From assembly GCA_945906765.1 (NCBI GenBank), contig CAMDRF010000001.1, positions 12,958 to 76,957 of the forward strand: a DNA stretch of 64,000 nt, given 5' to 3'. The translations under genes were made by a program, and so were the position numbers. Source of the DNA: Nitrosovibrio sp. Nv4. Its GTDB lineage: Bacteria > Pseudomonadota > Gammaproteobacteria > Burkholderiales > SG8-39. The notes beneath the pieces were generated by a model. That model saw nothing but the letters and a program-made list of their open reading frames with translations, made no database searches and was not told the DNA's origin. This document shows, in pieces, positions 1 through 58,798 of this stretch (position 1 is its first letter; each line of letters starts with the position of its first letter).

Positions 1-604
1 TGGCGCCCGGGTCGGCCGCGACGGCGCGGAATTTGAGGCCCAGGCGCGTGAAGATGCGCGTGTAGGTGTCGTACATGTTGCGGTACTCGCGCTCGAGGTC
101 CGCGTAATCGGCGTGGAAGGAATAGCCGTCCTTCATGATGAACTCGCGCCCGCGCATGACGCCGAAGCGCGGCCGGCGTTCATCCCGGAACTTGGTCTGG
201 ATCTGGTAGAAATGCACCGGCAGCTTGCGGTAGCTGCGCAGCTCGGCGCGCGCAATTTCGGTGATCACCTCTTCCGAGGTCGGCTGGATGACGAAATCGC
301 GCTCGTGCCGGTCCTTGAAGCGCAGCAGCTCCGGCCCGTAGGCGCCCCAGCGGCCTGACTCCTGCCACAGCTCGGCGGGCTGGACCACCGGCATCGACAG
401 CTCCACGGCGCCAGCGCGGTCCATTTCCTCGCGCACGATGGCCTCGATCTTGCGGACCACGCGCAACCCGACCGGCATCCAGGTGTAGATGCCCGCCGCC
501 AGGCGCCGGATCATGCCGGCGCGGACCATCAGCTTGTGGCTGAGGAGTTCGGCGTCGGCCGGCACCTCCTTGATGGTCGAAATGAAGTGTCGCGAAGTAC
601 GCAT
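1..604 (-). CDS. proS: prolyl-tRNA synthetase, N-terminal part (gene continues beyond the window edge)
   Basis: Reverse-strand translation from the ATG at 604-602 reads [49 protein letters not shown]..., a typical ProRS N-terminus. The frame is open to position 1. It is absent from the ORF track because it is incomplete. Confidence 0.9.
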
Positions 605-686
605 TCGTAGAGGTAAACTGCGCGTTGAATTTACGCTGAGGCTGTGGAAAAATGAGGTCGGGAATTCTAGCTTAGGTGGTGTTGCC

Positions 687-16775: not shown

Positions 16776-17751
16776 TTTTTTTCTCGCAGAATCTTTTCAC
16801 CCGCGCGGCCGCTGCTTCGAGGTCCGGCATGCTGCGGGTATAGGCGAAGCGCACGTAGCCGCGCGTCGCGTTCGTTCCAAAGTCGATTCCCGGCGTTGCC
16901 GCGACGCCTTCGCTCTCGAGCAATTCGATGCGGCGCCGTTCGAGGATTTTCAGGGTGGATGGCGTAAAACAGGCAAGCGCCGCGTGCTGCGCCACCGACG
17001 GCGCGCAGATGAACAGATGCTGGGCGAGTTTCTCGAACTCGCACATCCGTGCATTTTCCTTCGTTCGTGGCAGCACGACCCAGCCCAAGCGCCAGCCGGT
17101 CATGCAGAAATACTTCGAGAAGCTGTTCACCACCACCACCTCGCCCGGCAGGCCGAGCGCGGTTGCGGGCTTCTCGCCATACACCAGCCCCTGGTAGATC
17201 TCGTCGACGATCAGCACGCCGCCGCGCTGCGCGACGAAGCGCGCGATTTTCTCCAATTCGGTATTTGAAATAATGGTCCCGGTCGGATTGGACGGCGAAC
17301 CGAGCAGCAGGCCGCGCGTGCGGGGGCCCCAGGCCGCGCGCACCATGTGGCGGTAGCCGGGATAGCCGGGATCCGGCAGCAGGATCTCGTCGCCCGGATT
17401 CACCTACAGCGCGAGCGTCAGCAACAAGCCTCCTGACGCACCGGATGCAATGGCAATTCTTGAATCTGAAACCTCAATGCCAAAACATCTCTGGTAGTGC
17501 CCCCCGATTGCCTGCCGGAGGGCGGGCAGGCCGAGGGTGGCGGTGTAGGCGCTGCGGCCATCGCGCAGCGCGCGCACTGCGGCTTCCACCACCTGGGGCG
17601 CGGCGGTGAAGTCCGGTTCGCCGATTTCCATGTGGATAACGCGCCGGCCCGTCGCCTCGAGCTGGTGGGCGCGCGAGAGCACGTCCATCACCACGAAGGG
17701 CTGGATTTCTGCGGCGCGGCTCGCGGCGCGCAAACGTACCGGGGTCTTCAA
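16747..17751 (-). pseudogene. class I/II PLP-dependent aminotransferase, inactivated (in-frame TAG plus two internal deletions)
   Basis: The N-terminal part is read from the tail of the 900-aa antisense ORF (...EIQPFVVMDVLSRAHQLEATGRRVIHMEIGEPDF...ASGASGGLLLTLAL). A TAG stop at 17406-17404 follows, then VNPGDEILLPDPGYPGYRHMVRAA|WGPRTRG...NSFSKYFCMTGWRLGW. About 26 and 55 residues are missing relative to typical ~390-aa homologs (recollection). Confidence 0.7.
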
Positions 17752-17802
17752 GGGGAGGGGGATTATACGGATATAATTTTTACCCGATTCTAGGAGCAGA
17801 AA

Positions 17803-27493: not shown

Positions 27494-27915
27494 TCGATCT
27501 CGACGGGAATGCCCATCGGCAGCGAACCCATGCCGACCGCGGAACGCGCGTGCTTGCCGGCCTCGCCGAGGACTTCGACGAACAGGTCCGAGCAGCCGTT
27601 GATCACCTTCGGATGGTCGGTGAATTCGGGCGCCGCGTTCACCATGCCGAGCACCTTTACGACCCGCTTCACCTTGTCGAGGCTGCCGAGCTCGGCCTTC
27701 ATCACAGCCAGCAGGGCGAGCCCGACGGCGCGCGCGTGCTGGTAACCTTGCTCTACCGAGAATTCGAGCCCGAGCTTGCCTTTCACAGATCCAGGACCTT
27801 TACCTGAAAGAAAAAGCAGGTTGCCGGTGCGCACGGCATTGACGTAGTTCGCCATCGGCGGCGTCACGGGCGCCAGGGCGATGCCCAGTTCTTTCAGGCG
27901 TTTTTCGGCGCTCAT
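27472..27915 (-). CDS. RidA/YjgF family protein
   Basis: 147 aa: ...GNLLFLSGKGP...[11 protein letters not shown]-terminal pattern. Confidence 0.8.
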   Translation of the reverse strand: MSAEKRLKELGIALAPVTPPMANYVNAVRTGNLLFLSGKGPGSVKGKLGLEFSVEQGYQHARAVGLALLAVMKAELGSLDKVKRVVKVLGMVNAAPEFTDHPKVINGCSDLFVEVLGEAGKHARSAVGMGSLPMGIPVEIECIVEVS

Positions 27916-29303
27916 TCGAGGGGCACCACTTTGCCGGGGTTCATGAGGCCTTCCGGGTCGAAGACTTTCTTGATGTCGCGCATCAGGTCCATCATGTCAT
28001 CGCCCAGCTCCATGCGCATCGAACCCATCTTGCCCATGCCGATGCCGTGCTCGCCGGTGCAGGTGCCTTCCATTTTCAGCGCGCGCTCGATCAGGCGCTT
28101 GTTGAACTGCTTGGCGAGCTCGGTCTGCTCGGGTTTGTCCGGGTCCACCAGCAGCATGAGGTGGAAGTTGCCGTCGCCGATGTGACCGAGCAGCGGCACC
28201 GGATTGATGTAGTCCTTCATGTCTTCCATGGTCTCGCGCACGCACTCGGCGAGGCGCGAGATCGGCACGCAGACGTCGGTCGAGACCGCGCGCGCGCCGG
28301 GCGTCAACTGCAGGCAGGCGAAGTAGGCGTTGTGACGCGCATCCCAGAGCGCGGTGCGTTCCTCGGCCTTGGTCGCCCAGATGAAATCCATGCCGCCATT
28401 TTCCTTCGCGATCGCCTGCACTGTTTCGGCCTGTTCCACTACAGATGTTTTTGTTCCATGAAATTCAAAAAAAACAGTGGGCGCGACACGGTAGCTGGTT
28501 TTCTTGTACTTGTTGATCGCGCCCACGGTCTTTTCGCAGACGATGTCGCAGCGCGCGATCGGCACGCCGGCCTGAATGGTCTGGATCACGGTGTTGGTGC
28601 AGCCGTCCACCGATTCGAAGGCGCAGACCGCCGCCGACATGGCTTCCTGCACCGGGTAGAGGCGTACCGTGACCTCGGTGATGATCCCCAGCGTGCCCTC
28701 GGAGCCGACGAACAGGCGCGTCAGGTCATAGCCCGCGGCCGATTTCTTCGCGCGGCGCGAGGTCTGGATGATGCGGCCATCCGCCAACACCACCTTGAGG
28801 GAGATCACGTTCTCGCGCATCGTGCCGTAGCGCACGGCGTTGGTGCCGGAGGCGCGCGTCGCCGCCATGCCGCCGAGCGTCGCGTCCGCGCCCGGGTCCA
28901 CCGGAAAGAACAGGCCCGTGTGCTTGATATGTTCGTTCAGCTGCTTGCGCGTCACGCCGGCCTGGACCACGGCGTCCAGATCGGATTCATGCACTGCCAG
29001 CACTTTGTTCATCTGCGAGAGGTCGATGCACACGCCGCCCTGCACCGCGAGGATGTGGCCTTCGAGCGAAGTACCGACGCCGTAGGGAATCATCGGCACC
29101 CGGTGCGTACGGCAGATATTGACCACGTCACGGACTTCTTCGGTGGTATGCAGGAATACGACCACGTCCGGCAGGGCGTACGGGAAGTAGGACTCGTCCT
29201 TGCCGTGGTGCTCGCGCACCGGGGGCGAGGTGGAGACGCGCTCGCCGAGCAGGGCTTTCAGCTCGGCGACGACTGATTGATCAAATTCGCGGGCTTTGTT
29301 CAT
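27912..29303 (-). CDS. FAD-linked oxidase (GlcD/D-lactate dehydrogenase-like)
   Basis: 463 aa with an FAD_binding_4 N-domain (PYGVGTSLEGH) and a C-terminal FAD-oxidase domain (GTCTGEHGIG). Confidence 0.85.
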   Translation of the reverse strand: MNKAREFDQSVVAELKALLGERVSTSPPVREHHGKDESYFPYALPDVVVFLHTTEEVRDVVNICRTHRVPMIPYGVGTSLEGHILAVQGGVCIDLSQMNKVLAVHESDLDAVVQAGVTRKQLNEHIKHTGLFFPVDPGADATLGGMAATRASGTNAVRYGTMRENVISLKVVLADGRIIQTSRRAKKSAAGYDLTRLFVGSEGTLGIITEVTVRLYPVQEAMSAAVCAFESVDGCTNTVIQTIQAGVPIARCDIVCEKTVGAINKYKKTSYRVAPTVFFEFHGTKTSVVEQAETVQAIAKENGGMDFIWATKAEERTALWDARHNAYFACLQLTPGARAVSTDVCVPISRLAECVRETMEDMKDYINPVPLLGHIGDGNFHLMLLVDPDKPEQTELAKQFNKRLIERALKMEGTCTGEHGIGMGKMGSMRMELGDDMMDLMRDIKKVFDPEGLMNPGKVVPLE

Positions 29304-29307
29304 GGAA

Positions 29308-29514
29308 TTATTTTAGTCTGATCTCGCCATCGAAGGGCACCCTGAGCCCGAGTGAAGGGATCTCGAGCGTGACCTTCGCAGCCAGGGTTTCGCCGCCTTT
29401 GAGGCGCTGCGATTCGAGCGCCTTTTGCACTGCCTGCTCGATCTCGCGCTGCGAGCCGATGCCGACCATTTTCAGGAACTTGCGGATGCTGAGATTGAAG
29501 ATTTCCTGGTCCAT
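29308..29514 (-). CDS. DUF6494 family small protein
   Basis: MDQEIFNLSIRKFLKMVGIGSQREIEQAV... (68 aa). The ATG overlaps the pgi stop (TAATG). Confidence 0.6.
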   Translation of the reverse strand: MDQEIFNLSIRKFLKMVGIGSQREIEQAVQKALESQRLKGGETLAAKVTLEIPSLGLRVPFDGEIRLK

Positions 29515-30920
29515 TAGGTAACTCCTTTCAAGATGCGGTTGGCCAGTTGCTTGCCGAGTTCGACGCCCCACTGGTCGAAGGAATTGATGTTCCACAGCAC
29601 GCCTTGCGTGAAGACCTTGTGCTCATACAGTGCAATCAGCCGGCCAAGGTCGCGCGGCACGAAAGACCGGAATGCAAGGACGCTCGACGGGCGGTTGCCC
29701 TCGTGGCGCCGGTGCGCCGGCAACCCGGCGTCAGCTGTACCGTACGCAAGCGCGTCGGCCTGCGCGCGCGCATTGGCCGAAAGTACTTCGTTCACGGAGC
29801 AGTCGATGAAGTCCGCCGCCACGGGCTGGGGGCCCTGGTGCAGCAGCTGCATGAACGCGTGCTGCGCCGGCGTGCCTTCGGCGCCAAAGAGCACCGGGGT
29901 GGTGGCGTAGCCGACCGTGCGGCCTTCGCGGTCGATGCTCTTGCCGTTCGATTCCATCTCCAGTTGTTGCAGGTACGCTGGCAGCTGGCGCAGCCGGTGC
30001 GCGTAAGGCAGCACGGCGTGCGCGTGAATGCCGAGGAAGTTCACGTTCCAGACGCCGAGCAGCGCCATCAGCGCCGGCACATTGCTCGCCAGCGGTTCCT
30101 GCAGGAAGTGCTCGTCGATTTCGCGCGCGCCCGCCAAAAACTCGCTGAACGCGCTCTCGCCGACGGCCAGCAGTCCGGCAAAGCCAGCGGCCGACCAGAC
30201 CGAATAGCGGCCGCCGACCGAGTCCGGCATCTGCAGGATTTCGCTGGCGCCGAATTGTTCTGCAGCTTTGGCGTTTGCAGTTACCGCTATGAGGTTCTTG
30301 TATCCGAGACGGCGCGCGGCCGTGGCGTTCGAGATTGTTTCCAGAGTCGAAAAAGTCTTTGATACGGCGACAAGCAGCGTCGCGTCCGGTTCGGCGCCGG
30401 CGAGCGCGCGTTCCAGCTCGACCGGGTCGACGTTGGCGACGAAGCGCACATCCGGTGTGCCCGCATTTTCCGCGGATCCGAAGGCGTCCGCCAGCAGCCG
30501 CGGGCCGAGGTCGGAGCCGCCGGTGCCGAGATTGACGATTCTTTTGAATTTATTCTCGCTTCGAATCTTTGAGGCAAGACCTTGCATGCGAAAAAGAAGA
30601 TCCTGAACCTCTTTGGTCGCTGCGTCCCCGGCGCGCAGGGTGGTGTGCGTCGCCGTGTTGATTTCCTTTCCGGAAAAAAGCGCGGCGCGCCATTCATCGA
30701 AGCCGCGCTCGGTCGCGAGCTGGATCAGAAGGCGCAGCGTGAGCGCGCCCACGCGCTGGCGCGAATAGTCGAGCTGCACGCCCGGCGCTTCGGCGACCAG
30801 CTGCCGCGGGCGTCCCGGATCGCGCGCCAGCAATTCGGCGAGCCGCGCCTTGCGCCACGTGTCGGCGTGCGCCTCGAGTTTTTGCCAGGCGGGGCAGTCG
30901 AGGGGCGAAGTGGTGTTCAT
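29514..30920 (-). CDS. pgi: glucose-6-phosphate isomerase (compact 468-aa form)
   Basis: Motifs GTGGSDLGP, VGGRYSVWSA, QLEMESNGKS, GTPAQHAF and FDQWGVELGKQLA. It is shorter than the roughly 550-aa proteobacterial type. Confidence 0.8.
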   Translation of the reverse strand: MNTTSPLDCPAWQKLEAHADTWRKARLAELLARDPGRPRQLVAEAPGVQLDYSRQRVGALTLRLLIQLATERGFDEWRAALFSGKEINTATHTTLRAGDAATKEVQDLLFRMQGLASKIRSENKFKRIVNLGTGGSDLGPRLLADAFGSAENAGTPDVRFVANVDPVELERALAGAEPDATLLVAVSKTFSTLETISNATAARRLGYKNLIAVTANAKAAEQFGASEILQMPDSVGGRYSVWSAAGFAGLLAVGESAFSEFLAGAREIDEHFLQEPLASNVPALMALLGVWNVNFLGIHAHAVLPYAHRLRQLPAYLQQLEMESNGKSIDREGRTVGYATTPVLFGAEGTPAQHAFMQLLHQGPQPVAADFIDCSVNEVLSANARAQADALAYGTADAGLPAHRRHEGNRPSSVLAFRSFVPRDLGRLIALYEHKVFTQGVLWNINSFDQWGVELGKQLANRILKGVT

Positions 30921-30953
30921 TGAGCGCGCAGGCGTACGTTACACAGGCGCACG

Positions 30954-32579
30954 TTAGCCCGGCCCATAACGATACAGCCGGTAGCGCTCGCCGCGGTCGC
31001 CCGGCCGGCCGACGTCGGCCAGCTTGCGCCAGCCCGGTCCCGGGGTGATTTCCTGGCGCGGATGACCCTGGACGATGGTGTAGACGCATTTGGGCGCCCC
31101 CGGCGTGCCGGCCTGCGGTTGCGTGCGGAGGCCCGCGTGGTAGCTGAGCGCGGCGCGCTGCGGCGCGGCGAGCGAGGTTTGCGCGATGCAACCGGCGTTG
31201 GCGGGAATGCCGGATTTGAGCTGCAGCGCGACGCTGCGGTAACTCTTCACGTGGTCCGCCCATGGCATCCACAGCGTGGCGAAAGTTCCCCAGAGGAGCG
31301 CCACGCCCGCCGCCCAGCGCGTCACGCCGCGCGTCGGCGAAGGCGCGGTGAAGAGTATGAGGTAGACCCAGGCGAGCGTGAGCGCGAGCGCTGCGGCGAA
31401 CGGCAGCGGCTCGAAATGCGCGAGGAAGCCGGGCGCGGTCTTGGTGAAATTGTTCGCGATCCTCGGCGGCACGCCGCTCATCATCGCGATGTAACCGAGC
31501 CACACCAGCGCGGCGAAGAAGCTGAAGGTCATGACGCCGAACCAGTCGAGCAGGTTGGCCGCGCCGCGGCGCAGCCGCGCCACGCCGTGCGCGCCGAGCA
31601 GCGCCAGGGGCGCGAGCAGCACCATCGCGTTGATGTCCTGCTGCGGCCCGAGCCAGGCGATCGCCGGCAGCGCGAGCACGGCCGCGCACAGGGGGACAAA
31701 GATGCGAGGGGTACGAAATTCGCGCCGCAGCACCCACGCAGACCAGAGCGCGAGCGGCCAGGAGGGCCAGGCGAACCAGCTCGCGATGGAGAAGTAGTAG
31801 CGCAGATTGGGCCAGAATTCACCGCGCGCGTGCGTCGCGCCGAACCACCAGGACTGCGCGAGCTCCGGCGCGCGCAGGCTGAGCGCCAGCGGCCAGGAGC
31901 CGGCGACCAGCACGAATGCGGCGGCCGCCGCGGCGAGAAAACGCAGCGCGCGCGCATTGCGCCACTCATCGCAGGCGAGGTGCGCGAGCAGCGCGGCCGT
32001 TCCCAGCACCGCCGGTACCAGGGGGCCGGTGGACAGGAACGCGATGCCGAGAGACGCGCCGAACGCCAATCCCTTTTTGGCTGATTTTTCATGGCTGCCA
32101 GTCAAAAACAGGAGGGCGGCGCAGGCAGCGGCTAGCGTCGCAAGATCGGGCACCGCCTCGTGCGCGTGCACGATCAGGCCGACCGAGCCCAGCAGCAGCA
32201 GGGTGGCGCTTGCGCCGTTGGTCCGGCCTTCGCCCTTCAATGAGGAATGTCTCGAAGCCAGATACAAAAACCACAAAGCAGCCATCACAAACAGCCCGCT
32301 CGCGAGGCGCACCGCGTTATGGAATCCGAACAACCAGCCGAAGGCCTTGGCGAAGGCGAGGGCGAGCCAGTGGTAGAGCGGCGGGTCTTCGAGCCAGGGT
32401 TCGCCGGCGATGCGCGGCACGACCCAGTCCCCCGAGAGGTGCATCTGTTGCACGATCTCGATCGCGATGACGTCGAACGCGCGCCACGGGTCGTGCTCGA
32501 CCAGGCCCGGCGCGACGAACGCCAGGGCGATCAGGACAAGTACAGTGTGCGAGGGCGGGAGCGCTAGGCGGGGCAGCAT
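30954..32579 (-). CDS. ArnT/PMT-like membrane glycosyltransferase (GT39/GT83-type)
   Basis: 541 aa, more than 10 predicted TM helices. The N-terminal loop ...GEPWLEDPPLYHWL... is typical of this family. Confidence 0.7.
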   Translation of the reverse strand: MLPRLALPPSHTVLVLIALAFVAPGLVEHDPWRAFDVIAIEIVQQMHLSGDWVVPRIAGEPWLEDPPLYHWLALAFAKAFGWLFGFHNAVRLASGLFVMAALWFLYLASRHSSLKGEGRTNGASATLLLLGSVGLIVHAHEAVPDLATLAAACAALLFLTGSHEKSAKKGLAFGASLGIAFLSTGPLVPAVLGTAALLAHLACDEWRNARALRFLAAAAAAFVLVAGSWPLALSLRAPELAQSWWFGATHARGEFWPNLRYYFSIASWFAWPSWPLALWSAWVLRREFRTPRIFVPLCAAVLALPAIAWLGPQQDINAMVLLAPLALLGAHGVARLRRGAANLLDWFGVMTFSFFAALVWLGYIAMMSGVPPRIANNFTKTAPGFLAHFEPLPFAAALALTLAWVYLILFTAPSPTRGVTRWAAGVALLWGTFATLWMPWADHVKSYRSVALQLKSGIPANAGCIAQTSLAAPQRAALSYHAGLRTQPQAGTPGAPKCVYTIVQGHPRQEITPGPGWRKLADVGRPGDRGERYRLYRYGPG

Positions 32580-35994: not shown

Positions 35995-36190
35995 TGTCGC
36001 CGACGATACGCGCCCCGTTCTTGCGCATTTCCGCCAGCCGCTTGCGCGCCGCCTCGGCGCGATCCTGCTCCGGGACGATGCGCGCCACCACCTTGCCGTG
36101 GACCATGACCTCGATTTCCTCGCCGCGCTTCACGCGCGCGAGATAGGCCGGGAGATTCTGGCGCAGCTCCGTAACCTTGACCTTGGGCAT
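35954..36190 (-). CDS. Phd/YefM family antitoxin
   Basis: MPKVKVTELRQNLPAYLARVKRGEEIEVMVHGKVVARIVP... overlaps the vapC start by 4 nt. Confidence 0.8.
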   Translation of the reverse strand: MPKVKVTELRQNLPAYLARVKRGEEIEVMVHGKVVARIVPEQDRAEAARKRLAEMRKNGARIVGDIMKMPKETWDAER

Positions 36191-36269: not shown

Positions 36270-38882
36270 ATGCCCGGCCAGGAGATCGCTAAACAGGAGC
36301 TGTTCGTCGGCCTGGCCGAAAGCCGGGTGGGGGAGGATGCGCGCGGCATCACCGTCGTCACGCCCAACCGACGCCTGGCCCAGGTGCTGAAGTCCGAATT
36401 CGATGCCTTCCAGGCAAGCAAGGGTCTTGCCGTATGGCAAGACGCGGACATCCTGCCCCTTGAGGCATTCGTCGGCCGTTGCTACGAGGACGCCTTGTAC
36501 TCGGAAGAAGCCGCCTCGGGCGGCAGCCTGCCGATGCTCCTTTCCGACACGCAGTCGCGCGCGCTCTGGGAGGAAGCGATCCGCGGCTCGCGCTGGAGCG
36601 GCGCGCTGCTCGACGTGCCGCAGACCGCGGCCCGCGCGCAGGAATCCTGGCAACGGGCGCAGGCCTGGCGCATCGCGGGCGCCCTGGAAAAATTCGAGGC
36701 AACCGAAGACACGCGCGCCTTCGCCGACTGGGCCCGGGCCTACGCGCGCCGCCTGAAGAAGGACGGCCTCATCGATGCGTCCCTCCTTGCGGATCTTGAT
36801 CTGAAGAACAAATTCAAAAGCCCCGCACTGCTCGTCGCCTACGCCTTCGACGTACTGCCGCCGCAGACCGGGGATTTGTTTGCGCGTTTTGAATGGGTTT
36901 CCTGCGCCCCTGAAAGGAAAAATCCGGTTCTGAAAAAAACCTCGTTTGCCTCGCCGCGCGACGAGCTCGAAAGTGCGGCACGCTGGGGGCGCGCGCGGCT
37001 GGCGCAAGGCAAGGAACGCATCGGCGTTGTGGTGCCCGACCTGAAGCTGCGCCGGCGCGAGGTGGCGCGCGTATTCGCGCGCGTCATGGGCTCGTCCCTG
37101 CCGTTCGAGCTTTCCATCGGCGAGCCGCTGGGCAACTACCCCCTGGTTGCCTTTGCATTGAACCTTCTTGAATTTTCCCAGGGTGAAAAACCCTATGAAG
37201 AGGTGAGTCGCATCCTGCGCTCGCCTTTCCTCGCCGGCGCGGAGGGCGAGATGGCGGCGCGCGCGCGGCTCGACGCGAAGCTGCGGCGCGACGCAGGCGC
37301 GGAGATTTCCCTGGCGAAATTGACCGGCATGGTTGGCGGGAGTTTGTCTTTGCGCTTGATTTTGGAATCCTTATTCAAGAAATCAAAAGAAAAAGAAGGA
37401 AAACCTCTCTCCCCGCACGACTGGGCGCAGCACTACACCGCGCTGCTGGATGCGGCGGGCTTTCCCGGGGATCGCGTGCCCGATTCGGCCGAATTCCAGG
37501 CGCGCGCCAGGTTCAACGAGACGCTGGGCGAATTTGCCCGGCTGAGCCTTGTCACTTCCGGAATTTCCGCCCGGGACGCCTTGCGCCAGTTGCGCCGGCT
37601 GTGCGCGGAGACGCTGTTCCAGCCCGAGGGCGTGGGGGCGCCGGTACAGGTGCTGGGCCTGCTCGAATCCGCCGGCATCGAGTTCGACGCGCTCTGGGTA
37701 AGCGGGCTCACCGACGGCGCCTGGCCGCAGCGCGCGCATGCGGATCCCTTCCTGCCCGTGATGCTGCAGCGGCAGGCCGGCATCCCGGAAGCGTTCGCCG
37801 AACCCTCGCTCGCGCTCGACCGGCGCCGCACCGAGGGCTGGCTGGGGGCTGCGCACGAGGTGGTGTTCTCCTGGGCGCGGCGCGAAGAGGACCGCGAGCT
37901 CTCGCCCAGCCCGCTCATCGCGCAAGTGCCGGAAGGGATTGTCGATCTGCCGTTTCTGATTTCGTACAGGGATTTGATTTTCAAAAACGGAAAAACGGAA
38001 ACGTTCACGGACGAGAAAGCCCCGCTGCTTGCAAACAAGTCGGTGCGCGGCGGCACCCGCGTGCTCGCCGACCAGGCCGCGTGCCCGTTCCGCGCCTACG
38101 CGCGCCACCGCCTCGGCGCCGAGGCATTGGACGCGCCCGAACCGGGACTCGATGCGATGCAGCGCGGTCAGCTGCTGCACGCGCTGATGGCGGGGATCTG
38201 GGGCGAATTGAAGAGCAAAGCGGGTTTGGATGGCGATGTTTCTCTCGTCATTTCCAGGAGTGCGGAAAAAGCAGTAAGGGAAATGGAAATAGAAGGCCGC
38301 TTCGCTGAGTTGGAAGTACAGCGGCTGGTCCGCCTGGCGGGCGAGTGGCTCGACGTCGAGCGCGAACGTCCGGCTTTTGAGGTTATTCATATAGAACAAA
38401 AAAAGACACTTGAAGTCGGCGGTCTCTCATTGAACGGCCGCATCGACCGCATGGATCGACTCGAAGGCGGCACGCACGCCATCATCGACTACAAGACCGG
38501 CAGCCGCGCGACGCCGAACGACTGGATGGGCGAGCGGCCCGATGAACCGCAGCTGCCGCTCTACGTCATCACCGCGAACGTCAACGTCTCGGCGGTCGCG
38601 TTCGCGAAGCTGAAGACCGGCGACATGAAGTTCACCGGCTTGTCCCTGCGGGAAAACGAGATACCGGGCGTCAAGCCCGCCAAGTCCTGGCCCGGCCTGA
38701 TCCAGTACTGGAAGACGGAACTCGAAAAACTGGCCTCGGGTTTCGCGCAGGGCGAAGCGCGTGTCGATCCCAAAAAAGGCCTCGCCACCTGCCGCAACTG
38801 CGATTTGCAGCCGTTGTGCCGCGTGCACGAGCGCCTCAGCGCCCTCGCGGACGTAGAGGAGGGCGATGACTCTCATGGCTGA
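36270..38882 (+). CDS. addB: AddB-type PD-(D/E)XK nuclease subunit with Fe-S cysteines
   Basis: 870 aa. The C-terminal nuclease core is GRIDRMD...AIIDYKTG. The four-Cys set is AACPFRAY ... CRNCDLQPLC. It is followed by an overlapping UvrD-type helicase gene. Confidence 0.75.
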   Translation: MPGQEIAKQELFVGLAESRVGEDARGITVVTPNRRLAQVLKSEFDAFQASKGLAVWQDADILPLEAFVGRCYEDALYSEEAASGGSLPMLLSDTQSRALWEEAIRGSRWSGALLDVPQTAARAQESWQRAQAWRIAGALEKFEATEDTRAFADWARAYARRLKKDGLIDASLLADLDLKNKFKSPALLVAYAFDVLPPQTGDLFARFEWVSCAPERKNPVLKKTSFASPRDELESAARWGRARLAQGKERIGVVVPDLKLRRREVARVFARVMGSSLPFELSIGEPLGNYPLVAFALNLLEFSQGEKPYEEVSRILRSPFLAGAEGEMAARARLDAKLRRDAGAEISLAKLTGMVGGSLSLRLILESLFKKSKEKEGKPLSPHDWAQHYTALLDAAGFPGDRVPDSAEFQARARFNETLGEFARLSLVTSGISARDALRQLRRLCAETLFQPEGVGAPVQVLGLLESAGIEFDALWVSGLTDGAWPQRAHADPFLPVMLQRQAGIPEAFAEPSLALDRRRTEGWLGAAHEVVFSWARREEDRELSPSPLIAQVPEGIVDLPFLISYRDLIFKNGKTETFTDEKAPLLANKSVRGGTRVLADQAACPFRAYARHRLGAEALDAPEPGLDAMQRGQLLHALMAGIWGELKSKAGLDGDVSLVISRSAEKAVREMEIEGRFAELEVQRLVRLAGEWLDVERERPAFEVIHIEQKKTLEVGGLSLNGRIDRMDRLEGGTHAIIDYKTGSRATPNDWMGERPDEPQLPLYVITANVNVSAVAFAKLKTGDMKFTGLSLRENEIPGVKPAKSWPGLIQYWKTELEKLASGFAQGEARVDPKKGLATCRNCDLQPLCRVHERLSALADVEEGDDSHG

Positions 38883-41811
38883 TGCCTCGATTCGCGCGAT
38901 AGCCGACAGGGCCGAACGAGAGCGCGCGCTCGACCCCGCGCGCTCCTTCATCGTGCAGGCGCCCGCGGGCTCGGGTAAGACCACGCTCCTGGTGGGGCGG
39001 TTTCTCAAGCTTTTGTCTCTGACAACCAAACCTGAAGAAGTCCTCGCCATCACCTTCACCAAGAAGGCCGCGATCGAGATGCGCAAGCGCGTGCTTGAAA
39101 AACTTCCGAACTCAGGCGAAGTGGCCCACCGCCTGCGCATCGAGACCATCGACGCGTTCTGCCTCTCGCTCGCGCGCCAGTTGCCGGTGCCCTCGCAGTT
39201 CGGCGTCGCGCCGGGCATCACCGGCGATCCGGAGCCGCTCTACCGCGAGGCGGCCTGGCGCGTGGCTTCCAGCTTCGAGATTCCCGCCGTCGTGCGGCTG
39301 CTCGCGCACCTCGACAACAACGTCGGCACCGTGGTGTCGCTCATCGCGAGCATGCTCGCCAGGCGCGACCAGTGGCTGCGCAAGACCGGCCGCGCGCCCA
39401 CAAGGGAGGATCTTGAATTTGCATTTTCTTCTGAAAGAAAACGTCTTTCAGAAAAAGCGCGGAAACTTGACCCGCGTTCATCGGAGGAATTCGCCGCAAG
39501 CGTCCTAACGAAAAAGGGCGAGTGGCGCAAGCGCTCCAATGACGCCAAGCTGCTCGCGGGCAACGAAGCCTTGCGCGAAGCGCTCCAGGCCCTGCTTTCC
39601 CTTCCGCCAGACAGGTACAGCGAACCGCAATGGGAGGCGCTGGAAGCCATGCTGGCGCTCCTGCCGCTCGCGGCCGCCGAATTGAAACTCGTCTTCGCCG
39701 CGCGCGGCGAGGTGGACTTCACCGAGATCGCGCAAGGCGCGGTGCGCGCGCTGGGCAGCGCGGATGATCCAAGTGATTTGCTTTTATTATTGGATTCAAA
39801 AATAAATCATGTTCTGGTGGATGAGTTCCAGGACACCTCCATCAGCCAGTGGGAGCTGCTCGAGCGCCTCACCGCCGGCTGGCAGCCGGACGACGGTCGC
39901 ACGCTGTTCGTTGTCGGCGATCCGATGCAGAGCATCTACCGCTTCCGCGAGGCGGAAGTGGGCCTCTTCCTGCGCGCGCGGCGCGAGGGATTGGGAACTG
40001 CAGGCTTGCCGAACGTGAAGCTCGAGCCGCTCGCGCTGAAGACGAACTTTCGCTCCCAGGAAGGGATTGTGGAATGGGTAAATAAAACATTCTGTCTGCT
40101 TTTGCCCAAGGAAGAAAATGAAACGTCCGGCGCGGTGCCTTATTCGCCTTCGTCCCCCAACGATCCCGCGCTGCCGGGCGAGGCCGTGACCTGGCACGCC
40201 TGCCCGGATTCTGTTTTTGAATCTCAAAAAATAATTGAATTACTTCAAGAAACAAAAAATGATTGCGCGCTGCTGGTGCGCGGCCGCAGCGCGCTCGCTG
40301 ACATCGTGCCCGCGCTCAAGGCCGCCGGCATCCGCTTCCGCGCCATCGAAATCGACAAGCTGGGCGAAAAGCAGGTGGTGCAGGATCTCTTCGCCCTGAC
40401 GCGCGCGCTCACGCATTTGGCCGACCGCGTGGCGTGGCTCGCGATCCTGCGAGCGCCTTGGGTTGGTTTACCTTTGCTCGAATTCAGTTCTTTTTTCGAG
40501 GGAAAGCACGAAACAATCTGGGAACTCGTGCAAAACATTTCCAAACTCGAACGGTTTCGTTCCGTCCTCGCGCCCGCGCTCGCCAATCGCCTGCGCGGGA
40601 CGCTGCGCGACCGCGTCGAAAGCGTCTGGCTCTCACTCGGCGGCCCCGCCTGCGTCAGCGAGCGCGGCGAACTCGAAGACGCCGAAACCTATCTCGATGC
40701 GCTGGAGAAGCTGGAACAGGCGGGCGAGGTGGACTTCGCGCGCCTCGCCGAACTGCTGGGTGAACTCTACGCGCCGCCCGATCCCGCGGCCACCGGGAAC
40801 GACCTGCAGATCATGACCATCCACAAGGCCAAGGGCCTGGAGTTCGGCACCGTCATCGTGCCCGGCCTCGGGCGCGCGCCGGGCAAGAGCGACACGCCGC
40901 TCATGCGCTGGAAGGAACTGCCGGATAAAAGTCTTCTGCTTGCCCCTATAAAAGAAACAGGAAGCGACGATGAACCCGCCTACGAATACCTGAAGGCCCT
41001 GGACCGCGAGGCCGAAGACACCGAAGCCGCGCGCCTGCTCTACGTCGCCGCAACGCGCGCGAAGCACCGCCTGCACCTGCTCGCCTGCTCGAAGAAGGCC
41101 ATGCCGCCCAGGCGCAGCCTGCTCGCCTGCGCCTGGCCGGTCGCCGAACCGTTCTTCGAAGGCATCGCGCCGCCGGTAGCCGTGGTTGCAGCACCATCCC
41201 AACCCGCGCCCTTCATCCTCAAGCGCCTTGCCGCCGGCTGGACGCCGCCCGCGCTTCCGCCTGCCGCCGCGTGGACGGCGCCGCCCGAGGGACGCGAAGA
41301 CATGCAGATCGAGTTTTCCTGGGCGGGAGAGACGGCGCGGCACGTGGGAACGGTGGTGCACGCGTGGCTGCAGCGGATCGCCGAAGCGCAATGCAAAGGC
41401 TGGGATGCCAAACGCGTGGAATCCCTCCGGCCCGCGATTGAGCGCGACCTGCGCAGCCGGGGCGTGCAATCCGCTGGCCCCGCTGTCGAACTGGTTGTTA
41501 CCTCGCTGAAGAACGCCCTTGCCGACGAGCGCGGGCAATGGTTGCTCGGGCCGCACCCGGTGGCGCTGAACGAGCATCGGCTGCGCAGCCGCGGCCGCAG
41601 CTTCCGCATCGACCGGTACATCGAGGACGCCAAAGGCGGCAAGTGGGTCGTGGACTACAAGACGAGCGAACACAAAGGCGGCGGCATCGACGCATTCCTC
41701 GATGCCGAACGCGAGCGCTACAAGGCGCAGCTCGATCGCTATTCGGATGCGATGAAGGGCGCGCGGCGCGGCCTCTACTTCGCTTTGCTGCGCGGCTGGC
41801 GCGAGTGGTAG
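38866..41811 (+). CDS. addA: AddA-type UvrD/Rep helicase with a C-terminal RecB-family nuclease
   Basis: Walker A APAGSGKTT, VLVDEFQDTS, GDPMQSIYRFR, and the C-terminal motif FRIDRY...WVVDYKTS. Confidence 0.8.
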   Translation: MTLMADASIRAIADRAERERALDPARSFIVQAPAGSGKTTLLVGRFLKLLSLTTKPEEVLAITFTKKAAIEMRKRVLEKLPNSGEVAHRLRIETIDAFCLSLARQLPVPSQFGVAPGITGDPEPLYREAAWRVASSFEIPAVVRLLAHLDNNVGTVVSLIASMLARRDQWLRKTGRAPTREDLEFAFSSERKRLSEKARKLDPRSSEEFAASVLTKKGEWRKRSNDAKLLAGNEALREALQALLSLPPDRYSEPQWEALEAMLALLPLAAAELKLVFAARGEVDFTEIAQGAVRALGSADDPSDLLLLLDSKINHVLVDEFQDTSISQWELLERLTAGWQPDDGRTLFVVGDPMQSIYRFREAEVGLFLRARREGLGTAGLPNVKLEPLALKTNFRSQEGIVEWVNKTFCLLLPKEENETSGAVPYSPSSPNDPALPGEAVTWHACPDSVFESQKIIELLQETKNDCALLVRGRSALADIVPALKAAGIRFRAIEIDKLGEKQVVQDLFALTRALTHLADRVAWLAILRAPWVGLPLLEFSSFFEGKHETIWELVQNISKLERFRSVLAPALANRLRGTLRDRVESVWLSLGGPACVSERGELEDAETYLDALEKLEQAGEVDFARLAELLGELYAPPDPAATGNDLQIMTIHKAKGLEFGTVIVPGLGRAPGKSDTPLMRWKELPDKSLLLAPIKETGSDDEPAYEYLKALDREAEDTEAARLLYVAATRAKHRLHLLACSKKAMPPRRSLLACAWPVAEPFFEGIAPPVAVVAAPSQPAPFILKRLAAGWTPPALPPAAAWTAPPEGREDMQIEFSWAGETARHVGTVVHAWLQRIAEAQCKGWDAKRVESLRPAIERDLRSRGVQSAGPAVELVVTSLKNALADERGQWLLGPHPVALNEHRLRSRGRSFRIDRYIEDAKGGKWVVDYKTSEHKGGGIDAFLDAERERYKAQLDRYSDAMKGARRGLYFALLRGWREW

Positions 41812-41924
41812 CGCCTTTTACATCCGTGGCGGACGCGGCGACCCTGCTGGTGTCCGGTTGACCCCGCCGCGCCTCGCGCGTATCGTCTTACCTTAGTGTC
41901 TTACTTTTTCGGAGGGCGGCCGCC

Positions 41925-45249: not shown

Positions 45250-46149
45250 CTAGTGCGAATCTGGCGTACCGGTTCGAGATTCCGACTTCAGATACCAGTC
45301 GAGGATCTGCTCTCCGTTCCAGTGCAGTACGCCTTTTTTCCGGTTTATTTTTTTATAAACTTCCTCAAGATATTTGATCCGGAACGGCTGCCCGCTGATG
45401 TAGGGGTGGATCGCGATCGCCATGATCTTGGGCCGCTGCCTGCCTTCCTCGTAGTAGCGCTCGAAAGTATCCAGGCACTTCTTCGTCCAGTACGCCGCTT
45501 CGTGGTGCTGCACCATCATCACCGGGATGTCGTTGGTCTCGACTGAATAGGGCAGGGTGACGAGCGGGCCGTGGGCGGTCCTGATCTGCGTCGGTTCGTC
45601 GTCGTAGACCCAGTCGCCGATGTACTTGATGCCGGCGGCCGCGAGGTTCTCGGGCGTGTCGAGCGTCTGCGTCAGGCCCGGCCCGAGCCAGCCGACCGGG
45701 CGCTTGCCGGTGAATTTCTCGATGGTGTCCAGGGATCGCTTGATCATCGCGGGTTGATCCTCCTCGCGGTGGATCGGTCCCTGTTCGTAGCTGTGGCCCA
45801 TGAACTCCCAGCCGGCGTCCAGGCAGGTCTGCGCCACCCGCGGATAGTCGACGCAGACGCGCGCATTCAGCGCCAGCGTCGGCCGGATCTTCAGGCGGCG
45901 GAACAGTGCTTCGAAGCGCCAGAAACCGACCCGCATGCCGTACTCGTGCCAGCTCCAGTTCGGCACATCGGGCAGCAGGGGGACGCCGGTCGGCGGCGGC
46001 AGCACCTGGCGCGCCATGGCGCGCGCGATGTCCCAGACTTCGAGGTTGACGATGGTCCAGACGACCACGCGCGCGCCGCCGGGCAGCTTGAGCGGCGGGC
46101 GGTCGACAATCGCGGAATAGGGGGTTCTTTCGCGTGGAATCATGGCCAT
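45250..46149 (-). CDS. polysaccharide deacetylase family protein (PuuE/allantoinase-like subgroup)
   Basis: 299 aa: ...VVWTIVNLEVWD..., ...GWEFMGHSYEQ..., ...IAIHPYISGQPFRIKYLEE... Confidence 0.75.
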   Translation of the reverse strand: MAMIPRERTPYSAIVDRPPLKLPGGARVVVWTIVNLEVWDIARAMARQVLPPPTGVPLLPDVPNWSWHEYGMRVGFWRFEALFRRLKIRPTLALNARVCVDYPRVAQTCLDAGWEFMGHSYEQGPIHREEDQPAMIKRSLDTIEKFTGKRPVGWLGPGLTQTLDTPENLAAAGIKYIGDWVYDDEPTQIRTAHGPLVTLPYSVETNDIPVMMVQHHEAAYWTKKCLDTFERYYEEGRQRPKIMAIAIHPYISGQPFRIKYLEEVYKKINRKKGVLHWNGEQILDWYLKSESRTGTPDSH

Positions 46150-46155
46150 TTCTTA

Positions 46156-46184: not shown

Positions 46185-46206
46185 ACATACCCTGAGGAGG
46201 GAAGCC

Positions 46207-47436: not shown

Positions 47437-47438
47437 GT

Positions 47439-49968: not shown

Positions 49969-50710
49969 TTCCAACCGGCTTGAACTGACGATCAGCGGCA
50001 TCGCCGCCGCCTACGGCGCCGTGCGGGCGCTGCAGGGCGTTTCGATCTCGGTGAAGGACGGCGAGACGGTGGCGCTGCTCGGCACCAACGGCAACGGGAA
50101 AAGTACCCTGATGAAGTGCGTAATGGGGATTGTTCGTCCCTCAAAAGGGAAAATAGAACTGAAAATTGAAAATCAAACCTACGATCTCACGCGCCTCTCC
50201 ACCGAGGAGATCGTCGGCCTGGGCGTCGCTCTGGTGCCCGAGGGCCGGCGCCTGTTCCCGAAGCTCACCGTGGAGGAGAACCTGCTGCTCGGCGCGTTTC
50301 GCCCGCAGGCCCGCCCGGACATCGCGAAGAACCTCGCGTTCTGCTACGAAACCTTCGATGTCCTGAAAGAACGCAAACGCCAGCTCGCCGGCTCGATGTC
50401 GGGCGGCCAGCAGCAGATGCTGGCGATCGCCCGCGCGCTCATGTCTTCGCCCAAACTGCTGCTGGTGGACGAACCCTCGGTGGGCCTGTCGCCGCTGCTG
50501 GTATCGGCCACGGTGACCATGATCAAGCAGCTGAAGGAGCGCCACGGCTTGACGGTGCTGATGGCGGAACAGAATTTCCACCAGGCGATCCGCATCGCCG
50601 ACCGCGGCTACATCATCGTGCACGGCGAGATCGTGTTCGAGGGCAAGACGGTCGCCGAGCTGGAGACCAACCCCCTGGTGAAGAACTACTACCTCGGCAC
50701 GGCCGGCTGA
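49958..50710 (+). CDS. ABC transporter ATP-binding protein (LivF-like)
   Basis: Walker A GTNGNGKST, signature MSGGQQQM and Walker B LLLVDEP. TTG start. Confidence 0.85.
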   Translation: MAPDSNRLELTISGIAAAYGAVRALQGVSISVKDGETVALLGTNGNGKSTLMKCVMGIVRPSKGKIELKIENQTYDLTRLSTEEIVGLGVALVPEGRRLFPKLTVEENLLLGAFRPQARPDIAKNLAFCYETFDVLKERKRQLAGSMSGGQQQMLAIARALMSSPKLLLVDEPSVGLSPLLVSATVTMIKQLKERHGLTVLMAEQNFHQAIRIADRGYIIVHGEIVFEGKTVAELETNPLVKNYYLGTAG

Positions 50711-52217: not shown

Positions 52218-53230
52218 TGTTGTGCCTGCCTCTCCTGGAGTTCCTTCATGGAATAGCTGGCTTGCGTGCCGGCCGGCGTGTTGAGCGCGGGCAGCGTCGC
52301 CGCGATGTCTTTCTCCGCGATGTCGCGCGCGATGCAGACGAGGCGATTGCCGCGCTCTTCGCCTGGCACGATGTCGGACCATGCGCGAAAGCGCCGCGGC
52401 GAATGGAAGACGCCTTGCACGCCCTGCACGAAAGCGATTTCCCCCGTGTCTTCCATCTGCAGCAGCCCTTTCACGCGGATCAGCCGCGCGCCGAACTCCG
52501 CCGCCACCAGCCGCGACCAGGCGGACCAGCCAGCCCAGGTGACGGGGGAGGGCGGGCGGAAGGAGAACGCGCGGATGCCGGAGAAGTGTTCCTTGCTGCG
52601 TATGGGGCCAAGCGAAGAAAGTGGGGTAAGGGGTTTTTTGAAAATAGTTTTATTTGTAAACGCGTCTTGAACGGAATCCACAATTTCAAGATTCAAGGCT
52701 TTCAAATACGAAATGACGGGATCCGCATCCGCCAGGTCGCGCTTGCTGATGACGATGCGATCGGCGACGGCCGCCTGCTTGTCGAGTTCCGGGTACTCTT
52801 TCCGCGAAGCGAGGAAGTGCTGCGCATCCACCACGCACACGGTTGCCGCGAAGGCATACGAACCGGTCACCAGCGGATGGCCGAGCAGCACGTTCAGCAG
52901 CGGCGCGGGGTCGGCGGCGCCGCTGGTCTCGATGATCACGCGCTCGAAAGCCGGGATTTCTCCGCGCGCGCGCCGGCCGCCGAGGTCCGCCAGGGTTTCG
53001 TGCAGCGCACCGGTGTTGGCGCAGCACAGGCACCCCGCATCCAGCAGCACGACGTTGTCGGTGGCCTGCGCGATGATCAGGTTGTCGAGGCCGATGTCGC
53101 CCAGCTCGTTGACCACGACCGCCGTGTTCTCCATGCCGGGTGAGCGCAGCGCGGCATTGAGCAGGGTCGTCTTGCCGCTGCCCAGAAAGCCGGTCAGCAG
53201 GTAGACCGGGATTTTATTTTCAGGAATCAC
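52214..53230 (-). CDS. COG0523 (CobW/YjiA/ZigA-type) metallochaperone GTPase
   Basis: P-loop GFLGSGKTT and metal-binding CXCC motif (GCLCC). The GTG start overlaps the lysR stop (GTGA), and its stop overlaps the amidohydrolase ATG. Confidence 0.8.
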   Translation of the reverse strand: MIPENKIPVYLLTGFLGSGKTTLLNAALRSPGMENTAVVVNELGDIGLDNLIIAQATDNVVLLDAGCLCCANTGALHETLADLGGRRARGEIPAFERVIIETSGAADPAPLLNVLLGHPLVTGSYAFAATVCVVDAQHFLASRKEYPELDKQAAVADRIVISKRDLADADPVISYLKALNLEIVDSVQDAFTNKTIFKKPLTPLSSLGPIRSKEHFSGIRAFSFRPPSPVTWAGWSAWSRLVAAEFGARLIRVKGLLQMEDTGEIAFVQGVQGVFHSPRRFRAWSDIVPGEERGNRLVCIARDIAEKDIAATLPALNTPAGTQASYSMKELQERQAQQ

Positions 53231-57332: not shown

Positions 57333-58798
57333 ATATCACCGAAACCTTCGCCCACCACGCGCGCGCGGTCCCCGACCGCCCGGCGATCGTGCACGGTGAT
57401 CGTGTCCTCCTTTTCCGCGACCTCGACCCGCTGGTGAGCCGGGCCGCGGCGCACCTGTACTCACTCGGCCTCGCGCCGGGGGACGTCGCCGGTGTGGCGC
57501 TCAAGGACAGCATCGAGCACCTGGTGATCCTCTCCGCCATGGCGCGCGCCGGCATCGTCATCCTGCCGCTCGACTGGCGCTGGACGCCGGCGGAGCAGGA
57601 GCGCGTGGTGGCGCATTTCGGGGCGAAGCTCGCGCTGATGGAGCCGGGGAAGCCGTCGCTCCAGAACTGTCCTTGCCTTTCCGTTTCTGAAGATTTTCTA
57701 TTCCTGGTTCAAAAACAAAAAACGGATCAAAAATTCCCCGAAGGTGATCTTCCCCTTCTGATGTCCCTGTCCTCCGGGACGACCGGCCGCCCGAAGGGCC
57801 CGCGCATCCGCCACAGCCAGTTTCTCGCGCGCTACCGGGTGTTCTGGATCAACCTGGGCTTCCACAGCCAGGACCGGTTCCTGTCGGCGACACCGTTCTA
57901 CTACGGCGGCGGCCGCACCTTTCCGCTGACGATGCTGTACTCGGGCGGCGCCGTCTACATGCTGCCGCCGCCCTACGAGCCCGAAGCGCTCTGCGAAGCG
58001 ATATCCAAGTACCGCATCACCTCGCTCTTTCTCGTGCCGACGCTGATCCGGCGCCTGCTGACGCTGCCGGCGGAGAAGCTCGCGCCGGTGCGCTCGCTGC
58101 GGCTGCTGCTGTCATCGGGCTCGGCGCTGCACGCCGAGGAGCGCCGTGCGCTGCGTGCCCTGTGCCCGGGCTTCGTCGAGTACTACAGCTCTACTGAAGG
58201 CGGCGGCGTGAGCTATCTCACCGCGGCCGATCCTGAGGCGTTCAGCGAATCGGTGGGCCGGCCGGTGTTCGGGGTGGAGGTGCAGTGCGTGGACGAGAGC
58301 CACCAGCCTCTGCCGTTGGGCGGCATCGGCCGCATCCGCTACCGCGGACCGGCGGTCGCCGACGGCTTCTGGAACGACCCGGAAGCGAGCCGCGAATCGT
58401 TCCGCGACGGCTGGTGGTATCCGGGCGACCTGGGCATGCTCGATGCGAGCGGCTACCTGACCCTCAAGGGCCGCGCCAAGGACATGATCATCCGCGGCGG
58501 CATCAACATCTACCCGGGCGAGATCGAGGCGGCGCTGCAGTCGCACCCGGCGGTGTTGGACAGCGCCGTGGTCGGCTGGCCGTCGCGCGAATTCAACGAG
58601 GAAGTCGCGGCCTTCGTGATTCTCAACGGGGAGTCGGCGCCCGCGGTCAGCCCTTCGGAACTGCGCGACCTCTGCCGCAAGTCGCTCGCGCCCTACAAGG
58701 TGCCGCGCGAGGTGTTCGTGGTGAAGGATTTCCCGCGCAACGCGCTCGGCAAGGTCATCAAGGCCGACCTCAGTGCCGGCCTGTCGCCGCTGGGATGA
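57329..58798 (+). CDS. AMP-dependent synthetase/ligase (acyl-CoA synthetase family)
   Basis: AMP motif SSGTTGRPKG, and later YPGDLG and GRAKDMIIRGG. Confidence 0.88.
   Translation: MNITETFAHHARAVPDRPAIVHGDRVLLFRDLDPLVSRAAAHLYSLGLAPGDVAGVALKDSIEHLVILSAMARAGIVILPLDWRWTPAEQERVVAHFGAKLALMEPGKPSLQNCPCLSVSEDFLFLVQKQKTDQKFPEGDLPLLMSLSSGTTGRPKGPRIRHSQFLARYRVFWINLGFHSQDRFLSATPFYYGGGRTFPLTMLYSGGAVYMLPPPYEPEALCEAISKYRITSLFLVPTLIRRLLTLPAEKLAPVRSLRLLLSSGSALHAEERRALRALCPGFVEYYSSTEGGGVSYLTAADPEAFSESVGRPVFGVEVQCVDESHQPLPLGGIGRIRYRGPAVADGFWNDPEASRESFRDGWWYPGDLGMLDASGYLTLKGRAKDMIIRGGINIYPGEIEAALQSHPAVLDSAVVGWPSREFNEEVAAFVILNGESAPAVSPSELRDLCRKSLAPYKVPREVFVVKDFPRNALGKVIKADLSAGLSPLG

Follow-up and report, generated by a model that had tools for sequence, protein, structure and literature searches.

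The genes of a 64,000-nucleotide stretch of DNA assigned to Nitrosovibrio sp. Nv4 (contig CAMDRF010000001.1, positions 12,958 to 76,957; hereafter the window), which has an overall guanine-plus-cytosine (GC) content of 65.0%, are interrupted by short AT-rich islands of 12-30 codons in which GC falls to 0.21-0.47 and which together make up 2.6% of the coding DNA. These islands are very probably real, clade-specific and homologous alternative alleles at fixed codon positions, exchanged as blocks among GC-rich relatives. The index case lies in the gene for an FAD-linked oxidase (27912-29303, minus strand; 464 codons; Pfam domains FAD_binding_4 and FAD-oxidase_C), which has an overall GC content at third codon positions (GC3) of 0.85. 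Between 28436 and 28520 on the minus strand this gene encodes APTVFFEFHGTKTSVVE, using CCC, then a run of 13 consecutive A/T-ending codons that opens with ACT GTT TTT TTT GAA, continues with TTT CAT GGA ACA and closes with AAA ACA TCT GTA, and finally GTG GAA. The run, the longest of its kind in the gene, includes eight successive T residues, and it is present just as a sequence-only reading of this DNA, made by a model without database searches, had described it.

The oxidase island, referred to here as site B, is missing in L082 and L083, two strains nearly identical to the window, and present in the loci L086, L087 and L002 and in seven metagenome contigs. Relative to the oxidase DNA of the window, L082 and L083 show 34 and 38 differences, respectively, per 1392 positions, and 27 of the 34 in L082 are packed into about 85 nucleotides within gene nucleotides 781-900, so that flanks about 99.5% identical enclose a tract about 70% identical (binomial P = 5.8e-27). 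The homologous proteins P0002 and P0003, at 98-99% identity, likewise differ from that of the window mainly inside the island, where they carry SAAS instead of TKTS. Some 20 synonymous and 3 amino-acid changes separate the AT and GC alleles; the differences include several that are not AT-directed (ACC/ACG, GTG/GTC, AGC/AAC), mix transitions with transversions and involve all four bases. The clustering, the excess of synonymous changes and the changes not directed towards AT together identify the tract as a product of recombination, and of neither a single mutational burst nor gradual drift. Recent mosaicism, as proposed by the sequence-only reading, therefore holds for the oxidase patch, the island to which the test against near-identical strains was applied.

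Because the closest lineages, L082-L085 and L001, all have the GC allele, the lineage of the window most likely gained the AT allele. L086 is only 88.5% identical to the window over the oxidase gene, yet its island matches at 66 of 69 positions (0.883 over the rest of the gene), and in bins of 30 nucleotides the island core of the window shows 0 differences to L136, L086, L122 and L158, against about 3-4 elsewhere. Sequence comparison thus points firmly to an in-clade donor resembling L136 or L086. The AT allele of site B is found in at least 10 other in-clade contigs of 62-68% GC, derived from independent samples and assemblers; the carriers L087, L002 and the seven metagenome contigs all encode the clade-specific TVFFEFHG[TS][KQ][TS]SVVEQAE, and divergence between allele sequences follows that between lineages. 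The patch peptide RVAPTVFFEFHGTKTSVVEQAET, with TKTS, is itself clade-specific and the commonest variant (42 of the 120 closest homologues).

These data bear directly on the origin favoured by the sequence-only reading, which held that short segments had been recombined from a low-GC organism, bringing its codons and K-rich residues with them. The sharp compositional boundaries, the amino-acid shift towards K/I/N/E/F and the mosaic structure relative to near-identical strains all speak for such an import, but the patch peptides are clade-specific and common to many GC-rich relatives, the AT alleles sit in GC-rich in-clade contigs, and a donor about 70% identical would lack the flanking identity needed for recombination. 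Metagenome contigs were also searched for the 18-mer TTTTTTGAATTTCATGGA; among the matches listed, contigs of 26-54% GC encode a different flanking peptide, PTLFFEFHGSE.SNKE..., and GC-rich in-clade contigs encode the clade peptide. A phage or plasmid source of the oxidase island was rejected because blastn against phage and plasmid collections gave no match. The earlier reading had itself named AT-rich codons shared with related GC-rich genomes as the observation that would argue for ancient features, and related GC-rich genomes do carry the same AT-rich codons at these sites, which argues for old in-clade features, reshuffled by within-clade recombination. For the oxidase, LivF and AddA islands the evidence goes most of the way to refuting import from a low-GC taxon, which as a general account is highly improbable.

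An artefact, whether from chimeric contigs or from consensus errors in short-read metagenome assemblies, is scarcely credible. The window does come from a MEGAHIT-style short-read assembly, and a public contig differs from it by odd in-frame TAG codons in rho, but the islands are in frame and homologous with conserved residues preserved, the identical oxidase protein occurs on 5 public contigs, the alleles recur in independent samples and assemblers (an L085 scaffold, contigs from JGI and metagenome-assembled genomes, or MAGs, from NCBI), and their sequences track lineage as noted above.

The oxidase island is one of many in the window (Table 1). The seven other patches listed by the sequence-only reading are all present, six of them itemised by gene (an aminotransferase pseudogene, pgi and genes for a deacetylase, a LivF-like ATPase, a COG0523/CobW GTPase and an acyl-CoA synthetase), and ten more islands lie in the AddB/AddA-like genes at 36270-41811. 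Chance was assessed with 57 curated genes (18,196 codons) in which synonymous codons were shuffled 500 times among identical residues of each gene, patches being counted as merged windows with a threshold number of A/T-ending codons per 12. At a threshold of at least 8 of 12 there were 27 patches where 1.68 +/- 1.30 were expected (maximum 6 in 500 shuffles), at least 9 of 12 gave 16 against 0.19, and at least 10 of 12 gave 10 against 0.01. Since the synonymous shuffle yields far fewer patches than are observed, amino-acid composition fails to explain the clustering of A/T-ending codons and is ruled out as its cause.

It is also clear that such islands are not a general property of GC-rich genomes. 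The nearest genomes to the window are MAGs of uncultured Burkholderiales, for example "Betaproteobacteria bacterium RBG_16_66_20" (L001), with an oxidase that is 92% identical in protein and about 81% identical in DNA. A/T-ending codons are loosely clustered in nearly all of about 68 GC-rich loci that were compared, much of this clustering arising at mis-framed ends of open reading frames (ORFs), and about half of the automatic window calls proved to be mis-framed ORF extensions; a strict test for embedded islands was therefore adopted, requiring A/T endings in at least 9 of 12 codons and a GC3 of at least 0.8 over 30 codons on each side. Strict islands number 7 in 18,809 codons of the window (0.37 per 1000) and 3 in 3,651 codons of L002, compared with 1 in about 356,000 codons of some 65 other loci. 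Under a relaxed criterion the densities per 1000 codons are 0.58 for the window, 1.10 for L002, 0.53 for L004 and 0.08 for the rest, and 12 of 14 further in-clade loci fall at 0.27-1.45, values that are biased upward because several of these loci were chosen for carrying an island. Sharply embedded islands are thus almost confined to one clade of uncultured soil and sediment Burkholderiales, and the assignment of the trait to this clade is firmly supported. In a neighbour-joining tree the patch-free loci L003 and L005 (GC3 0.95-0.98) stand between two patchy groups, one of the window, L084, L086, L001 and L087 and the other of L002 and L004, a pattern which suggests either an old trait erased under extreme GC pressure or exchange between the groups.

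Comparison with relatives covered the islands of the oxidase, YjgF/RidA-like, pgi, AddB-like, AddA-like, deacetylase and LivF-like genes and of the aminotransferase pseudogene. In the oxidase, L084, L086, L002 and L004 are AT-rich at a second position, site A (codons ~38-58), where the window is not, site B is AT-rich in the window, L086, L087 and L002, and the two sites are found in every combination among lineages. The pgi site is AT-rich at homologous codons in six lineages, with a DNA identity of 0.38-0.60 within the patch between most lineages against 0.69-0.79 in the remaining gene; the corresponding ranges for oxidase site A are 0.71-0.83 and 0.84-0.88, so that at these two sites the islands change at a rate that equals or exceeds that of the remainder of the gene. 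The LivF peptide, rich in K/I/E/N, is kept in all relatives at 88-97% identity, and its codons ATA GAA CTG AAA ATT GAA AAT do not vary among the window, L212, L211 and L213. At the AddB islands the corresponding positions of patch-free relatives, aligned without gaps, are rich in A/R/G, and at the deacetylase island and AddA 39763-39822 relatives use GC-ending codons for almost the same peptide. The islands are heritable, position-specific and long-lived, and they are gained and lost as blocks of about 40-100 nucleotides with end points in conserved flanks.

Close strains also differ at some of these positions. The window and strain L088 show 8 differences in the 48 nucleotides of AddA 39403-39450, and 11 differences in 63 nucleotides separate close strains at AddA 40093-40155, against about 1-2% elsewhere; AddA 38973-39073 has 26 differences per 100 nucleotides relative to L088 in strains otherwise about 97-99% identical. 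The two alleles of this last, hypervariable segment have a moderate AT-richness in common but specify different peptides, and the segment falls below the island threshold in the window and above it in L088. Raised divergence in and near islands, together with the fast turnover at pgi and oxidase site A and the clade-specific distribution, would be accounted for if fixed sites underwent AT-biased hypermutation, whether from a defect in repair peculiar to the clade, from an error-prone polymerase or from DNA that is frequently in single-stranded form. This mechanism is nonetheless improbable, given that the oxidase alleles differ mostly by synonymous and partly by non-AT-directed changes, which do not amount to one burst, and that several islands, for example 40207-40263, are without close-strain differences. 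The same oxidase allele occurs in lineages otherwise 88-90% identical to the window, so that it was transferred and not made anew, and the mixture of transitions and transversions fits no single deaminase-type signature. A diversity-generating retroelement target was likewise rejected, as the 64-kb window holds no template and the allele differences involve all four bases. Recombination is evident beyond the islands, since about 45 of 92 differences from the same-species L212 fall in the 3' half of LivF (50200-50706), where divergence reaches about 9%, compared with about 0.5% in the remainder of 45500-50710; this is an ordinary GC-rich recombination tract, and recombination must therefore be frequent in the population regardless of islands.

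The compositional shift within islands reaches beyond synonymous sites. Four-fold degenerate sites are A or T in 57% of cases inside islands and 9% outside, and GC at codon positions 1 and 2 is 0.500 in the patches of the window compared with 0.607 at the same codons of patch-free orthologues (0.551 and 0.581, respectively, outside patches). Island substitutions are of the R/A/G to K/T/N type, the amino acids are shifted towards K/I/N/E/F, and amino-acid identity to relatives is 0.653 in islands and 0.767 outside. The sequence-only reading was thus right that both codons and amino acids are AT-shifted, and right also that the patches are homologous sequence and not insertions, as codon alignments with relatives run ungapped across them. 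The only gap, of 4 residues, lies in LivF relative to the distant structure 1ji0; here the sequence-only reading needs correction in one detail, in that the LivF patch, although homologous, has 4 extra residues, which are conserved in all close relatives. An in-frame insertion or miniature mobile element was rejected on the ungapped alignments and on the failure to find, within the window, any repeat or template copy of an island, there being no repeat family that includes one.

The reading preferred here, that long-lived in-clade AT islands are exchanged by homologous recombination and are non-adaptive in cause, has in its entirety about an even chance of being correct; its least secure element is the non-adaptive cause of the AT-richness, to which we would give at best a balanced prospect. 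The AT-richness would have arisen in place within the clade, under a local nucleotide-level regime acting on all three codon positions. One plausible mechanism is that islands centre on locally variable peptide stretches, where the universal AT-biased mutation pressure may not be offset by the force that keeps the remaining genome GC-rich, a force for which GC-biased gene conversion and selection for GC-ending codons are candidates. A segment that had come to differ from the GC allele at about 30% of positions would then behave as an indivisible haplotype, which recombination could replace or transfer only as a whole. The literature describes AT-biased mutation countered by a force that raises GC and, in bacteria, an association of recombination with GC3 (PMC2936529, PMC4450053); GC-biased conversion in this clade, and the escape from it of diverged segments of 60 nucleotides, are presumed by this cause. 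The oxidase island is in any event dispensable, as strains of the same species lack it.

Several points weigh against this reading. The site-B peptide is strongly conserved save for its variable central tetrapeptide, and the islands are far AT-richer than non-genic DNA of the window, for which the value of 0.626 GC derives from a set that includes unannotated ORFs. The control loci for the clade comparison all come from the neighbourhood of one gene. Dense mismatches might be repaired towards GC instead of escaping conversion, and the proposed cause leaves the first nucleation of islands unexplained. The AT-richness of the pgi site lasts while its sequence turns over, which selection for composition predicts likewise, and the cores of site B and LivF are unchanged across lineages that are about 85-90% identical in nucleotide sequence, a hint of constraint or of recent spread.

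The main rival view is that the islands are selected cis-elements which act via local composition and are only shuffled by recombination. They could be translation-slowing clusters of rare codons, AU-rich and weakly structured messenger RNA (mRNA) such as RNase E entry sites, or DNA that melts or bends readily and is bound by a nucleoid protein peculiar to the clade. In keeping with this, AT-richness at pgi recurs by position while the sequence changes, as it does in conserved rare-codon clusters (PMC5438181), islands persist in genes where 91% of four-fold sites are G or C, the core of the LivF island is invariant in four lineages and that of the oxidase in at least 11 contigs, and the AT allele weakens the predicted folding of a 138-nucleotide mRNA segment from between -45.5 and -52.7 kcal/mol to -35 kcal/mol. 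The window further contains a Lys-rich, H1-like ORF, though no link between it and the islands was found. Such selection is nevertheless unlikely, if by no means negligible. Outside the clade the oxidase position has a mean A/T fraction at third codon positions (AT3) of 0.166 against a gene background of 0.150 in about 80 homologues, which makes a role tied to the folding of the shared protein fold unlikely; same-species strains do without the oxidase island, and codon rarity would not require the amino-acid shift.

Searches for a functional signal gave little that would favour selection. There are 0 promoter-like sites in 27800-31000 on either strand, a region that includes the oxidase and pgi islands, and an intragenic sigma-70-type promoter was rejected for these islands in the absence of -35/-10-like hexamers at proper spacing. 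The only Rfam match in the window is a tRNA (6760-6833), with none at islands, the folding of islands is no more stable than that of shuffled controls (z -0.40 to +0.69), and compensatory changes occur at 2 of 33 predicted pairs, among related sequences; a structured RNA element was rejected on these three grounds, the covariation being slight. A -1 frameshift site was suggested by the heptamer U UUU UUU in the window and rejected because L086 and L002 have GTG/GTA TTT TTT. No AT-rich 10-12-mer occurs more than 3-4 times, and a DNA uptake sequence or other shared motif was rejected for want of a long repeated word; TTGAA/TTCAA and A-tracts are enriched, but in a way that fits the L/F-E and F-K codon pairs. 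GANTC methylation sites show no enrichment in islands.

A related and quite unlikely proposal is that the islands are balanced trans-lineage polymorphisms, functional cis-elements read by a clade-specific factor. With the same slender probability, they could be AT-rich sites on which a nucleoid protein or a ribonuclease lands, tuning the expression of individual housekeeping genes, or else recoded "immune" alleles that escape a sequence-specific nuclease aimed at the conserved GC-rich version. Balanced polymorphism would explain the persistence of alternative AT and GC alleles at shared codon positions in different lineages, their recombinational movement and their frequent position beside conserved enzyme motifs.

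Table 1. AT-rich islands in the window, with strand, codon position or composition, and state in relatives.
Gene or feature	Position	Strand	Codons and composition	Relatives and remarks
NUDIX gene, two adjacent weaker islands	579..683	+		
Aminotransferase pseudogene	17444..17499	-		L087: mostly GC codons, partly different residues
YjgF/RidA-like gene	27781..27816	-	codons 34-45; AT3 0.92	also in L084, weak or absent in other relatives
FAD-linked oxidase, site B	28422..28490	-	codons 272-294 of 464; 23 codons; AT3 0.74; GC 0.43	
pgi, second, weaker island	30255..30290	-	codons 211-222	also in L084, partly in L086
pgi	30549..30614	-	codons 103-124	homologous codons AT-rich in L084, L086, L001, L087, L002
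AddB-like PD-(D/E)XK nuclease	37152..37199	+		L005, L008: GC codons and different residues; L086 intermediate
AddB-like	37359..37406	+	GC 0.27; ILESLFKKSKEKEGKP	
AddB-like	38259..38294	+		
AddB-like	38364..38429	+		
AddA-like UvrD helicase-nuclease	39400..39480	+	run of 16 A/T-ending codons	
AddA-like, adjoining VDEFQD helicase motif	39763..39822	+		L209: nearly same peptide, GC-ending codons
AddA-like	40060..40101	+		
AddA-like	40207..40263	+	19 consecutive A/T-ending codons; GC 0.21	identical in L088, partial in L209
AddA-like	40456..40494	+		
AddA-like	40915..40974	+		L209: GC codons, almost same peptide
Polysaccharide-deacetylase-like gene	45328..45375	-	GC 0.27	L211, L213 encode KYLEEVYKAIGKKKGV with GC-ending codons
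LivF-like ABC ATPase, after Walker A	50120..50185	+		peptide GKIELKIEN clade-conserved
COG0523/CobW GTPase	52610..52702	-		junction following nucleotide-binding domain
Acyl-CoA synthetase	57668..57757	+		directly upstream of SSGTTGRPKG

Other features of the locus were recorded in passing. The class I/II aminotransferase gene (16747-17800, minus strand) is a true pseudogene, with a TAC to TAG change at the codon aligned to a Tyr of L087 and a 25-codon deletion between two direct repeats encoding MVRA; its AT island is still present. An ORF at about 15280-15570 on the plus strand, within the AT-rich segment 15248-15445, encodes 96 residues that begin MAKKKAKKGGKKKKKKASGKKKSSKKK; the product is histone-H1-like and Lys-rich in composition with no Pfam match, and it could be a nucleoid-associated protein. 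Positions 17896-39303 match the 77-kb contig k141_576616 of ENA ERZ27280223 (L081) at 99.9%. On L081 the essential gene rho (32947-34206 in the window, minus strand) contains two TAG codons in the reading frame, at a distance of 12 nucleotides (5533-5547 on that contig, corresponding to 33759 and 33771 here) where the window, L086 and L087 have AAG and GAG/GAA, and the gene caller split rho on L081; the TAG codons could mark a variant defective in rho, could stem from an error in the consensus, or could be ambers that are suppressed. A 16-bp tandem repeat with the unit TCGGTATCAACCATGC (minus strand) occupies the intergenic segment 23104-23171 upstream of a CobD-like gene, the window having one copy more than L081. 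A PhdYeFM-type antitoxin gene adjoins the AddB-like gene, and the region downstream of AddA is non-syntenic with strain L088, which suggests small mobile toxin-antitoxin cassettes at strain-variable junctions (35954-36190, minus strand, and 41862-42221, plus strand).

Parallels with better-known systems are instructive. Mosaic genes produced by recombination between related lineages are familiar from the penicillin-binding-protein genes of Neisseria and Streptococcus. Like those mosaics, the oxidase has a block about 30% diverged in a gene otherwise 99.5% identical, with donor-like alleles in relatives; unlike them, the island blocks are about 40-100 nucleotides long, lie at fixed sites in many housekeeping genes and are defined by a switch in composition rather than by a phenotype that is obviously under selection. 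Conserved rare-codon clusters (Clarke & Clark; Chaney et al. 2017, PMC5438181) are likewise groups of rare synonymous codons clustered beyond chance, mostly within domains, in which the position and not the exact codons recurs among homologues. The position of an island, however, is conserved in one clade only and not in the wider protein family, islands are present or absent even within a species, and their amino acids and codon positions 1 and 2 are AT-shifted too, so that the island signal is one of nucleotide composition and not of codon rarity alone. In recombination-linked GC heterogeneity, as framed by the GC-biased gene conversion hypothesis (Lassalle et al. 2015, PMC4450053), synonymous and non-synonymous sites are shifted alike, as they are here, and GC-rich flanks beside AT-rich segments are expected if the GC-raising force acts unevenly along DNA; that work concerns whole genes, whereas the islands span tens of nucleotides and have sharp edges. 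Lastly, the islands resemble xenogeneic DNA silenced by H-NS, MvaT or Lsr2, and spurious intragenic promoters (PMC3923964, PMC8894471), in being AT-rich tracts inside genes of a GC-rich genome, and by analogy proteins of this type would be expected to prefer them. They differ from such targets in being native homologous sequence of 40-100 nucleotides and, in the oxidase and pgi, in having no promoter-like hexamer pairs.

On the practical side, islands of this kind look like foreign DNA to screens that detect horizontal transfer by composition, and in MAGs they could be mistaken for chimeras. The force that keeps bacterial genomes GC-rich in the face of AT-biased mutation is a long-standing question, for which selection and GC-biased gene conversion are the candidates. 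This clade provides natural, sharply bounded pairs of AT and GC alleles of the same codons, within the same species, in housekeeping genes and at dozens of sites, and these pairs make the question of GC maintenance testable at a fine scale. If the islands should prove to be functional, they would represent a clade-specific regulatory layer written in synonymous and near-synonymous sites.

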